Below, piece after piece: positions 1 through 52,914 of a DNA stretch of 64,000 bases. Numbering within the stretch: the first letter of the stretch is position 1; every line of letters begins with the position of its first letter. The notes under the pieces were generated by a model that did no database searches, was not told the origin of the DNA, and saw only the letters and a program-made list of their open reading frames with translations. The stretch spans positions 712,567-776,566 of the forward strand of contig JBMNFB010000001.1 of assembly GCA_050949085.1 (NCBI GenBank), read 5' to 3'. Both the position numbers and the translations under genes were made by a program. This DNA comes from Bacillota bacterium (lineage in GTDB: Bacteria; Bacillota; UBA994; UBA5500).

Positions 1-853
1 TGCTCCAGGGAAACAGAGGGGTTGTTGGTGATGACTATCGCCTGATACCGCATTCCTACCTCCAAGCCAAGCCGCTGCACATAAGCTGCCATGAGTTCTC
101 AAAACCACTGACTATTGTATCCCCAAACCCCCTGCAATACCGGGGAGATCACCAATTTTGGGCCACTGTGGATGCGCCACACAGGCAATTTAAAAGACAG
201 GGGTCTGAAAACACGTGGTGCCTTCACCTCTGTCTCTTGGTACCTGAGAGATTTTGTAGGGCCTTCAGCTCGACCCCGCTCCTTCGGTGCTGCCCCGACG
301 CAGCTTTCCAGAGTGCTGTCACCGCACGGTCCTTTTGCCTGAGAGTTTGGTGCAAGTCCGGCTGAGAAATGCAATTTGCTCCTTCGGCGCCATAACGGTC
401 TCTCCCGTGCGAGTCATCCAGAGCCATATTCTATTTTCACGTTACCATATGTATCTACTTGTTCTTTCGTTCACCAAGAGCATACCATTTGAACTTACGG
501 AAGGCAAGGGTTCCACACACTCTCATGCGAAAAATGTATCATAACAACAGATGCAAGCATAAGAATACTTTTTCAAGGGGTACAAATCGCCGAATCAGGG
601 CTTCAGCGGGGCACAACCTGCCGTCTCGAGAGCATTTCTGTGGGGTTCCCCTCGATCCTGCAACCTGGCAGCCTCCCCGCCGTAATAGATCAGGGGAGGC
701 AAAGGCCGAGGTGCGCAGGGGCCAATTAGCGTAGTGCTAGTGGCAGGCTACTATGGTAAAATCCAGTTAGGATTGTGAAAAGGCCAAGGGCTATATCTTG
801 TCTCTACAATCTAGCACGGGGTATACAGGAACACTCTCTGGGAGGGAAGCCGA
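1..853. other. ORF-free, lower-GC leader region with UUCG-capped hairpins and an internal tandem repeat of about 95 nt; possible structured RNA, leader, or decayed element (unresolved)
   Basis: Only short mutually overlapping ORFs on both strands. Repeated blocks CCTGAGAG...GCTCCTTCGG(T/C)GC at about 243-310 and 335-400. Region 420-600 is AT-rich. Confidence 0.3.
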
Positions 854-1582
854 TTGCTACAGATTGAGAATGTCTCTAAGCGCTATCAGAAGGGCGCAGT
901 GAAAGCTGTAGACAGCCTCACACTGCGGATTAACGCGGGCGAGATCTTTGGATTCCTGGGCCCGAACGGCGCCGGAAAAACGACGACACTGAAGATGGTA
1001 GTAGGACTGCTGAGACCCGACGAGGGCTCGATTCGCGTCAACGGCATCGATGTTCAGCGGGAGCCGCTTCGGGCCAAGGCACAGCTGGGCTTTGTGCCAG
1101 ACAACCCCGACCTCTATGAACGTCTGACTGGCCTGGAATACCTCAATTTCATCGCCGACGTCTATCGAATGCCGACGGAGCAGAGAAGGCAGCGAATTCA
1201 ACACATGCTGCAGATGTTTGAGCTGGAGGGGGCTGTTGGCAACCTGATTCAGAGTTTTTCCCATGGTATGAAACAGAAACTGGCGCTGACGGCGGCCTGG
1301 GTGCATAACCCATCCCTGCTAATTCTGGACGAACCGATGGTCGGCCTTGACCCACGCTCGGCGCACCTTTTCAAGGAGCTGATGCGCGAACACTGCGATC
1401 AGGGTAATACGGTTTTCTTCTCAACCCACGTCCTCGAAGTGGCCGAGAAGCTCTGTGACCGCATAGGCATCATCAACCGGGGACGCCTGATCGCCTGCGG
1501 CACGCTTGAGGAACTGCGCAGCATGGCGCAACGCGAGGAATCTCTCGAGGAAATCTTCCTCGAACTGACGGAGGCGGTGTAA
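854..1582 (+). CDS. ABC transporter ATP-binding protein (ABC-2/drug-exporter type), TTG start
   Basis: Walker A GPNGAGKTT, ABC signature and Walker B ILDEP motifs; 242 aa. Confidence 0.9.
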   Translation: MLQIENVSKRYQKGAVKAVDSLTLRINAGEIFGFLGPNGAGKTTTLKMVVGLLRPDEGSIRVNGIDVQREPLRAKAQLGFVPDNPDLYERLTGLEYLNFIADVYRMPTEQRRQRIQHMLQMFELEGAVGNLIQSFSHGMKQKLALTAAWVHNPSLLILDEPMVGLDPRSAHLFKELMREHCDQGNTVFFSTHVLEVAEKLCDRIGIINRGRLIACGTLEELRSMAQREESLEEIFLELTEAV

Positions 1583-1588
1583 AGCCAG

Positions 1589-3253
1589 ATGCTAGCCAAA
1601 TTGGTCTGGGTGACGCTAAAGAACGAGTTCGGGCTCTCAGTGCTGCGTGATCGCTGGCGGCGCCGTGAGAAGATCTGGGAGCCTATTGTCATTGTCTTGT
1701 CAATGCTGCTTGGCTTCAGCACATTCGCCGGCATACTCTACTTTCTGTTCAAGGGCGTGGCCGAGTTCGGGGCAGCGCTGGGTCAGCCCGAGCTGGTCTT
1801 TACAGTAGCCATCATCGGTAGCCAGTTTCTAGCCCTGCTGATGGGTACGTTGATGGTCATTTCGTCCTTCTACTTCTCCAAAGACCTGTCCATACTGGTG
1901 CCACTGCCGCTGCGCGGTTCTCAGATCGTCGTTGCCAAGCTGATGCATGTGATGGCCACCGAATATCTACTGGGGGCGGTCCTTTACGTCCCAGCCTGTG
2001 TTGCCTTCGCCCAGGTGGCGACACTCACCGGGTGGAGAATGCTGCTGATTCTGGTCAACTTCCTGCTCATGCCAGTGATCCCCCTCGTTGTGGCGGCTAT
2101 CGCCTCCCTGCTGCTAATGAAGGTGATCAACCGCAGGCATCGTGATCTGCTGATGGTCATTTTCTCAGTGGTATTCATGCTGATCGCGCTCAGCTTTAGT
2201 ATGGCGCCGACGGCGTTGGGCGAGAATGACCCGCAGGCAATGTTGCTGAAGATCCTTACTGAGCACGGTGCCCTATTGCAGGTGGTCGGCAGGCGCTTCC
2301 CGCCAGCCCTCTGGGGTAGCCGCTCAATCGGCATGGCCGGATCGCTGGCTGGCTTGCTCAATCTGGGGCTTGTGCTGGCAGTAGCTGCCGTGGGTTTGGC
2401 CGTGCTCTGGGTGCTGGCAGAAAGGCTGTTTCATGCTGGATTGGTAGGCGGTGAAGAAGTAGCCGGGCGCCGCAAGGCACTTTCGCGCACCGAGCTGGCC
2501 AAACGGACGGAGGAGCAGGGGGTTTTCGCTGCTCTGTTTTGGCGGGAATGGAAGCTATTTATGCGTACGCCACTCTTTGTGATGAACGGCCTGGCTGGCG
2601 CTGTAGTGATGCCGCTGGTGATGGTCGTATCACTCCTGATGCAGAGCAGCGAAATAGGCGAAATGCTGACACAAGTGCAGACGCCGACGGGACGGATGAT
2701 TGCCGCGCTGATAATCGCAGCCATCATCGGTTTCTTAGGTTCAGTAAACGCCATCTCCAGCACTTCCATCTCTCGCGAGGGGCGACTGTTCTATATCTCG
2801 AAGGTGATCCCCGTGCCCGCTCAACTGCAGGCAAGAGCGAAGATCATGCATGCGGCGTCGCTGGCTGTCCTCAGCGCACTGCCCATGCTGATCGCCTATG
2901 TCCTGCTGCTCAAGCCGGGCGTGGTGGAGGTTGCCTTCTCCCTGGCCATTGGTCTGGCTGCGTCTCTCCTCGGCATAGTGCTGGGGCTCTACGTGGATAT
3001 GCGCCGGCCGCGTCTCGATTGGACGAACCCACAACGGGCGATGAAAGAGAATTACAACGTCCTGATTCCAATGTTCCTGAACATGCTGAGCGCGGGCCTG
3101 GGAGCACTGCTGACCTGGTGGCTCTACAGCGCGCACATAGCGCCGCCCCTCATCTACCTTGCCCTGTTCGCGCTCTTCGGTGCCAGCAGCTGGCTGAGCT
3201 ACCGCCTCGTGATCCGTCAGGCTGAGGTACTCTACCTGCGCCTCGAGGTCTAG
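1589..3253 (+). CDS. Large polytopic membrane protein, probable ABC-2-type permease partner
   Basis: 554 aa with many hydrophobic helices. Lies 7 nt downstream of the ABC ATPase, same strand. Confidence 0.6.
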   Translation: MLAKLVWVTLKNEFGLSVLRDRWRRREKIWEPIVIVLSMLLGFSTFAGILYFLFKGVAEFGAALGQPELVFTVAIIGSQFLALLMGTLMVISSFYFSKDLSILVPLPLRGSQIVVAKLMHVMATEYLLGAVLYVPACVAFAQVATLTGWRMLLILVNFLLMPVIPLVVAAIASLLLMKVINRRHRDLLMVIFSVVFMLIALSFSMAPTALGENDPQAMLLKILTEHGALLQVVGRRFPPALWGSRSIGMAGSLAGLLNLGLVLAVAAVGLAVLWVLAERLFHAGLVGGEEVAGRRKALSRTELAKRTEEQGVFAALFWREWKLFMRTPLFVMNGLAGAVVMPLVMVVSLLMQSSEIGEMLTQVQTPTGRMIAALIIAAIIGFLGSVNAISSTSISREGRLFYISKVIPVPAQLQARAKIMHAASLAVLSALPMLIAYVLLLKPGVVEVAFSLAIGLAASLLGIVLGLYVDMRRPRLDWTNPQRAMKENYNVLIPMFLNMLSAGLGALLTWWLYSAHIAPPLIYLALFALFGASSWLSYRLVIRQAEVLYLRLEV

Positions 3254-36012: not shown

Positions 36013-36282
36013 CCCCCCCCCAGAGGTGCAGTAGATGACAGAGTCTATATAGATTTGGTCTATTCTCCGTAATCGTAACAATTCCTGCTAGCGATTGCAC
36101 TGAATTTGCCCAATCGAGGTAACTGACACCATAGTAAGACGGCGAAGATCGGACAGGCGTCGACACCGTAATGGCTGGCGGATCGAAGTCCGGCGAAATA
36201 TGCGGGGGCGAGAGAGGAAAACTAATACGGAACGCGAATAATCTATAGCTAGAGAGCATTAAGAGAGGGGGCGTCTCCTATA

Positions 36283-44266: not shown

Positions 44267-44557
44267 TTCTTCACTTCCTTTCCTAGATATGATGCTGGAT
44301 CACGGCGACGCCAGCTGCCGCGACCCCTGCTACCCTGGCCAGGAAGTAGCGTATTCGTCCCATTAGACGGAGGAGTGAGGCTTCAGGTTCCGCAATTGTT
44401 TCCTTCGCACGGCTGTGCCGTACATCTGTAGATAGAAGAACTGAACGAGGTCCATGTCCTGGGATAGGGGTAAGGCGTGCGGCGTGTTACGCGTAACATC
44501 TCAGGTATGGTATGCTGAAAATAACTACTGGTAGTCCAATGGGAGGGGAATTGATAA

Positions 44558-49218: not shown

Positions 49219-49482
49219 TCACTTCCCTGATGTGCACACCCGCCTCGAAGGCGGGCTACGCTAGCTTAGTTACCGGTATTATAGCGCAAACACCACTCGT
49301 AAGCATACTACTAAGAGAAACTATTCCTGTTAACAGTATCGGGTAAATGGGCGCCTCGTGCCGAGATGCAGGTGGTAACCTGCGGGGTCGCAGTTCATTT
49401 TCAGGCTGGGTGAAGGAAGGGCGACCCCTCCGGAGAAGTGTTAGGTCGATGCTAAACGAACAACGGTGGTGAGGTACTCATA

Positions 49483-52689: not shown

Positions 52690-52914
52690 CTACAAACCTC
52701 CTCTGCTCAGAATAGCTGACTGAATAGAGTCTTTCTTCTTCTCACACTTTCGCCAACAGCGGCAGGTTTCCTCTGCTAAACCTCGATTTATCATGCAAAG
52801 CGAATGCTAGTACAGTTACTACATCCTACGCTTCGCCCCTAGTCCTAGCATTCGGTTTGTCCAGGGAGTAGAATGAAGTTGGTGTTCCATGACTAGACAG
52901 GAGGCATCAGCCAG

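Follow-up and report, generated by a model that had tools for sequence, protein, structure and literature searches.

A probable tandem glycine riboswitch in the leader of the grdX-glycine reductase operon of an uncultured Bacillota bacterium

The described elements closest to the one reported here are the tandem glycine riboswitches of family RF00504 (clan CL00125; Mandal et al., 2004), of which B. subtilis gcvT and V. cholerae VCI-II are examples. Disruption of the leader-linker kink-turn abolishes regulation in B. subtilis (PMC5666159), and aptamer 1 has been found to be more conserved than aptamer 2 in ON-switch contexts (PMC6944388). In C. difficile, grdX is directly preceded by a glycine riboswitch, and a PgrdX fusion is induced there by glycine (PMC10880999; bioRxiv 10.1101/2023.06.30.547236); as cited in these two papers, this riboswitch is credited to Soutourina et al. 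(2013).

The window analyzed here is the whole stretch of 64,000 nucleotides of contig JBMNFB010000001.1 of a Bacillota bacterium, and the locus lies at its left end. With a probability of about 0.92, the minus strand carries a canonical tandem glycine riboswitch (421→192), its expression platform being a transcription terminator, as the 5′ leader of a grdX-trxB-trxA-grdE-grdA-grdB... operon. The sequence-only reading had regarded positions 1-853 as an ORF-free leader upstream of an ABC transporter and had named tandem aptamers among several options; this option was right, but it was placed on the wrong strand, with the wrong regulated gene and with too large an extent (850 nt). Only 421→192 of the region is structured RNA, and its left end (53→1, minus strand) is coding. 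The element is real, far beyond chance, and is a known kind of element in a known gene context: the riboswitch class is textbook, the grdX context is on record for C. difficile, and the element is picked up by standard Rfam annotation. The result matters mainly as a correction of strand and target gene, and no long-standing question is opened by the grdX riboswitch. The features of the locus are listed in Table 1.

Table 1. Coordinates of the features at the grdX locus and of an amino-acid uptake operon in the same window
Feature	Position	Strand	Remarks
grdX, 5′ coding end	1..53	-	ATG 53-51, MRYQAIVITNNPSVSLE...; first 17 codons; gene leaves the window at the left edge
5′ UTR spacer, terminator to grdX	54..191	-	RBS GGAGG 63→59; chance GCCACTG 162-168 (+)
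Predicted intrinsic-terminator hairpin	192..238	-	ends UUUU (195→192), then AAAUU; 5′ arm holds CAGAG 232→228
Predicted glycine aptamer 2	228..313	-	P1 313-309/232-228; P2 304-301/292-289; P3 288-286/244-242; P3a 282-279/250-247; P3b ~277-258
Inter-aptamer linker	314..321	-	CAG 318-316 pairs with leader CUG 421-419 (P0); invariant GAC in kink-turn-like GA motif
Predicted glycine aptamer 1	322..412	-	P1 412-405/329-322; P2 398-390, very short; P3 388-386/339-337; P3a 382-379/345-342
Leader CUGGAUGAC	413..421	-	P0 5′ strand and GGAUGA; RF03166 model positions 1-9; kept in 18/19 relatives
Candidate grd promoter region	428..507	-	two candidates; presumed start site
Spacer between divergent promoters	508..751	.	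no alignable conservation with L003-L006; no Rfam match
Promoter-like extended -10 and ~85-nt 5′ UTR of ABC genes	752..853	+	TaTGgTAAAAT 752-762; RBS GGAGGGA 841-847
ABC transporter ATPase	854-1582	+	Pfam ABC_tran, 105.5 bits
ABC transporter membrane protein	1589-3253	+	Pfam ABC_tran_2, 46.2 bits
Amino-acid ABC uptake operon	binding protein 58314→57502; permease 57437→56661; ATPase 56648→55902	-	

Like the RF00504 tandem switches, the element consists of two homologous three-way-junction aptamers with the cores GGAGAG, CCGAAGGAGC, CUCUCAGG and AAAGGAC, and of a P0 helix, formed by leader and linker, together with a GA-rich kink-turn-like motif. P0 together with GGAUGA/GAC matches the leader-linker kink-turn known from B. 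subtilis (PMC5666159). As in gcvT, a single terminator competes with P1 of aptamer 2, which would make the element an ON switch. It differs from the usual RF00504 tandem switches in that glycine reductase, and not the glycine cleavage system, is the predicted target, in the GAAAG and degenerate J3/1 of aptamer 2, and in the unusually short P2 of aptamer 1. The arrangement of a riboswitch followed by grdX-trxB-trxA-grd genes is similar to that of C. difficile at the level of gene association. Unlike C. difficile, the organism belongs to another, uncultured, high-GC lineage of Clostridia (best GrdX match, 70% identity), and an added ClnR/LL-37 regulatory input is a feature of C. difficile.

An Rfam search was among the checks proposed in the sequence-only reading, and cmscan of positions 1-1200 at E≤10 gave a single match, on the minus strand, the plus strand yielding noise at most. 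RF03166 (glycine-GGAnGA), a two-aptamer model, aligned over its full length to 421→226 (minus strand) with 83.2 bits and an E-value of 1.7e-17. The two halves were also scanned apart, which let the single-aptamer model RF00504 (Glycine) compete with RF03166, and each aptamer exceeded the curated RF00504 gathering score of 32 bits in these half-by-half scans: aptamer 1 (scanned as 417→322, minus) scored 58.8 bits and aptamer 2 (321→220, minus) 38.9 bits (E 4.1e-07). A scan of the whole window at the gathering threshold gave 64.4 bits for aptamer 1 against RF00504. Aptamer 2 was absent from this filtered scan and passed only in the local one; as bit scores are independent of search size, its absence is ascribed to the speed filters of Rfam. 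Search of the region for tRNA and tmRNA returned none. In its score, structure, covariation and architecture, and also in its gene context, the element agrees with a standard glycine riboswitch of RF00504. Selective glycine binding and a glycine-dependent change in expression are predicted for the RNA (421→226), with indirect support from the glycine induction of the C. difficile grdX leader.

The operon served by the riboswitch continues beyond the left edge of the window, and it was followed through contigs encoding exactly the same ABC ATPase (L001 and L002). L002 matches the window without a difference over 3120 nt, and L001 shows 18 mismatches in 11582 nt (99.8% identical). Beyond the left edge of the window, the minus strand carries grdX, trxB, trxA, grdE, grdA and grdB in this order. 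The full GrdX product of 128 aa matched NCBIfam NF038093 with 131 bits (cut-off 40), while it had no Pfam match; the grdE product matched Pfam Gly_reductase (722.9 bits), and the best NCBIfam match of grdB was glycine reductase selenoprotein B. Since grdX starts at position 53, downstream of the riboswitch and on the same strand, the glycine reductase operon, i.e., a glycine-catabolism operon, has the riboswitch as its 5′ leader. Selenoprotein glycine reductase (Stickland-type glycine fermentation) is predicted to be glycine-induced in this uncultured high-GC Clostridia organism.

A few features of the operon itself were recorded. The grdA gene was called in two pieces (41 + 106 aa; L001 1112-1573, minus), which are separated by an in-frame UGA in line with a selenocysteine codon. 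The grdB call (L001 19-1074, minus) stops at residue 351, and SECIS_4 elements are present in the relatives L040 and L048. The product of trxB (L001 3488-4714, minus; 408 aa) is a reductase fused at its C-terminus to a thioredoxin domain (residues 307-392), and a separate trxA follows the gene. The spacer between the terminator and grdX (54-191) folded no better than shuffled sequences (z +0.59), gave no Rfam match at E≤10 and showed no similarity to the spacers of relatives; a hidden element there was rejected, as fold, Rfam and conservation were all negative.

The search for related loci with GrdX, limited to one genome per species, gave 80 loci, the best match being 70% identical and from uncultured Clostridia/Bacillota MAGs. 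Crude motif scanning of the 700 nt upstream of grdX showed at least one aptamer core in at least 44 of the 80 loci and two cores in 21. At the Rfam gathering threshold, a glycine aptamer was found upstream of grdX in all 20 submitted loci, which had been preselected by the earlier motif scan, so that this figure confirms the motif matches and is not an unbiased frequency. The sequence of the window and 18 tandem examples were aligned with MAFFT, and RNAalifold analysis of these 19 sequences gave 10 helices: P0 itself, four in aptamer 1 (P1, P2, P3 and P3a) and five in aptamer 2 (P1, P2, P3, P3a and P3b). Over the 44 base pairs, 95.6% of the cells were paired, vs. 31-51% when the 3′ partners were slid by 1-3 columns. 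Covariation among homologous regions, the second check that had been suggested, was pronounced: compensatory double changes were seen in 22 of the 44 pairs, 134 cells were changed on both sides (42 in shuffles), and none of 500 shuffles reached the observed covariation on any measure. The P1/P2/P3-P3a three-way junction was borne out by compensatory changes in the 19 sequences. P0 also covaried (CG:14/UA:4 and UA:17/AU:1) and was 100% paired, the GA and GAC were invariant in the 19 sequences, and GGAUGA was conserved. The minimum free energy fold of the whole 276-nt leader was not better than that of shuffles (z -0.96); folding of this single sequence is uninformative and covariation is decisive. 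One of the related loci (L009) harbors a lysine riboswitch (1776-1968, minus) ~2 kb upstream of its glycine riboswitch, which is probably a coincidental neighborhood.

The hairpin following aptamer 2 (238→192) had a folding energy of -21.7 kcal/mol (z -4.07), and none of 200 shuffles folded as well. It is the single terminator of the element, and its 5′ arm shares CAGAG (232-228) with the 3′ strand of aptamer 2 P1 (313-309/232-228); as both use this segment, P1 and the terminator are mutually exclusive. A simple terminator scan did not flag the hairpin, which has a short U-tract (UUUU then AAAUU); the miss is attributed to its long interrupted stem. In relatives with uncut sequence, the ACAGAG strand is part of a hairpin that comes after aptamer 2 and leads into a U run, and the same hairpin and U run can be read directly in the sequences of L003-L006.

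A mechanism consistent with this arrangement can be proposed. Transcription would start ~5-50 nt upstream of position 421. In the absence of glycine, CAGAG 232-228 would be held in the terminator (238→192), and RNA polymerase would stop at the U-tract before grdX. With glycine present, P0 between leader and linker and the GA-rich kink-turn-like motif may hold the two aptamers together, and the aptamers would fold and lock P1 of aptamer 2 (313-309 with 232-228). The 5′ arm of the terminator would thereby be removed, leading to read-through and synthesis of the glycine-consuming enzyme. The element should thus act as an ON switch, in which ligand-stabilized P1 prevents termination, a direction deduced from the structure; it fits the downstream operon, as the latter consumes glycine.

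The repeated motifs described in the sequence-only reading are real. CCTGAGAG occurs at 243 and 338, and a second motif, GCTCCTTCGGTGC at 278-290 and GCTCCTTCGGCGC at 378-390, forms a 13-nt direct pair 100 nt apart. These motifs were read on the opposite strand and are the reverse complements of the most conserved cores of the family: CCTGAGAG corresponds to CUCUCAGG and GCTCCTTCGGYGC to GCRCCGAAGGAGC. The UUCG-capped hairpin described with them was a wrong-strand artefact, and the transcribed GCRCCGAAGGAGC forms the 5′ strands of P3 and P3a. The two repeat units are homologous aptamers but not a DNA repeat array, since Tandem Repeats Finder reported none and only the 13-nt core pair was recovered. 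At the sequence level, the locus has the tandem architecture of two aptamers, a short linker, and P0 with the conserved GGAUGA/GAC, for which a kink-turn fold is predicted.

The two aptamers are not equally canonical. Aptamer 1 has all four of GGAGAG, CCGAAGGAGC, CUCUCAGG and AAAGGAC, and its junctions, GGGAGAG and AAAAGGAC, are those of the canonical aptamer. Its P2 (390-398, minus) is of only 2-3 bp (CCG UUA UGG), vs. 4-6 bp with larger loops in L003-L006; the shortening is compatible with the 58.8-64.4 bits scored against RF00504. Aptamer 2 retains CCGAAGGAGC and CUCUCAGG in the P3/P3a cores but has GGAAAG and AAGAGAC at the junctions, so that the core pattern is kept only in part. In 17 of 19 tandem switches linked to grdX, its J1/2 reads GAAAG, not GAGAG; the J3/1 of aptamer 2 varies and lacks the GG. 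The canonical aptamer 1 and deviant aptamer 2 agree with the results reported for other glycine riboswitches (PMC6944388; PMC5666159). The locus is one more example of the ON-switch pattern with aptamer 1 as the conserved sensor and a drifting aptamer 2, and a possible change in glycine binding by aptamer 2 is the only mildly novel angle.

Among the other explanations, the one that survives best is that the element is in effect a single-aptamer sensor, in which aptamer 1 binds glycine and the altered aptamer 2 is chiefly a scaffold for folding that also carries the P1/terminator switch. The junction deviations of aptamer 2 in the grdX-linked switches beside a canonical aptamer 1, and a score 20 bits below that of aptamer 1, point in this direction. 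So do the B. subtilis data, where mutation of the aptamer-2 pocket is harmless to regulation while mutations of aptamer 1 and of the kink-turn are not (PMC5666159), and the greater conservation of aptamer 1 in ON-switch contexts (PMC6944388). In aptamer 2, however, every helix and both cores (CCGAAGGAGC and CUCUCAGG) are retained, and its score is above the Rfam threshold; we consider a single sensor rather unlikely. Its extension to the grd-linked tandem switches in general, with aptamer 2 as a conserved altered domain that has lost glycine binding or has a very different affinity, and hence a one-site sensor with a structural partner, is a somewhat more tentative suggestion. If true, the grd-linked tandem switch would stand, as a natural intermediate, between the true tandem switches and the singlets that have ghost aptamers. 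The element reported here resembles the latter (Ruff et al., 2016; PMC5066625) in having one aptamer more canonical than the other; unlike a ghost aptamer (PMC5066625), the second domain here has a full P1-P2-P3-P3a-P3b and passes the Rfam threshold, hence it is not a ghost.

Assignment of the element to the variant family glycine-GGAnGA (RF03166), with a ligand specificity that might be altered, is very improbable. RF03166 was the best-scoring member of the clan over the whole tandem unit, and the element shares with it the tandem architecture, the GGAUGA in the leader, P0 and an alignment over the full length of the model. The 83.2 bits are, however, below the gathering score of 110, and as RF03166 is a two-aptamer model, this score is gathered from both domains. 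The junctions of aptamer 1 are the standard GGGAGAG and AAAAGGAC, vs. cuAGAcA and AAAAggAg in the RF03166 consensus, each aptamer alone passes the threshold of RF00504, and the downstream genes consume glycine. The variant is defined here from the Rfam consensus alone, glycine-GGAnGA not being mentioned in the main text of Weinberg et al. (2017). A standard tandem glycine riboswitch is, therefore, the preferred assignment.

The remainder of the supposed leader, 422-853, is very likely a region of divergent promoters, which serves the ABC transporter genes as well. Two candidate grd promoters were found on the minus strand. The first, TTGCCT (507-502) and TGgTATGCT (487-479) with a spacing of 17 nt, is kept in the four closest relatives and lies ~50 nt upstream of P0; its CATACCA (481-487) is an invariant island within an otherwise unalignable spacer. 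The second, TAGATA-18 nt-TAGAAT (457→428), came from a consensus scan and is not conserved. On the plus strand, an extended -10 (752-762) is located ~90 nt before the TTG start of the ABC genes at 854, and the window and L003-L006 all have the same base at each of positions 752, 754, 755, 757, 758, 761 and 762. The intergenic spacers of the four closest relatives are 300-430 nt long and unalignable save for two islands (479-507, minus, and 752-762, plus). A blastn search with 422-853 gave no match, either among the 80 related loci or elsewhere in the window. The open reading frames within 508-751 are short, arginine-rich and implausible. A hidden element or gene in 422-853 was rejected, as only two short promoter-like islands of the region are conserved and its 91-aa ORF (459-734) is arginine-rich and not conserved.

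This organization bears on the possibility, slighter than that of RF03166 membership, that a structured leader or tandem aptamer controls the plus-strand ABC transporter, as the sequence-only reading had it. The region is directly 5′ of the plus-strand ABC ATPase gene, and the ABC pair is a conserved divergent neighbor of grdX in the four closest relatives (L003-L006; 74-76% protein identity). The pair is, however, transcribed away from the riboswitch, which faces grdX on the minus strand; Rfam matches are confined to the minus strand, with no plus-strand match at E≤10 besides noise, and covarying helices exist for the minus-strand RNA only. The transporter genes have a conserved promoter-like site of their own, the extended -10 at 752-762, >330 nt downstream of the aptamers, and the sequence between is not conserved.

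Least credible of all is a functionless decayed repeat, mobile-element remnant or 3′ UTR of an upstream gene, an idea fed by the long ORF-free stretch and the local GC dip but opposed by strong compensatory covariation across species with GrdX only 40-70% identical, by the lack of other copies in the window, and by the position of the element 5′ of grdX on its own strand and not 3′ of any gene. The small-RNA and decayed-element options of the sequence-only reading are likewise unsupported, and its refuting case of a 3′ UTR or remnant does not apply. The long ORF-free region it described holds for 366-814, the longest stretch of the window without an open frame of at least 120 codons. The lower GC it reported is correct for 401-600 (0.42 vs. 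~0.55-0.62 in the flanks), but the dip lies in the promoter region and the repeats (201-400) have 0.57. The GCCACTG heptamer it likened to a B12 box is present (Table 1) but is a chance match: a cobalamin riboswitch was rejected, as no cobalamin-family match was obtained at E≤10 in 1-1200 and GCCACTG occurs 18 times in the window (10 on the plus and 8 on the minus strand).

Further stretches of the window without an open frame of at least 120 codons are located at 36088-36252, 44300-44524, 49219-49455 and 52720-52892, and none of the four had an Rfam match at the gathering threshold. Elsewhere in the window, a lysine riboswitch (RF00168; 58430-58613, minus, 88.3 bits) lies upstream of the amino-acid ABC uptake operon, which is an ordinary arrangement.
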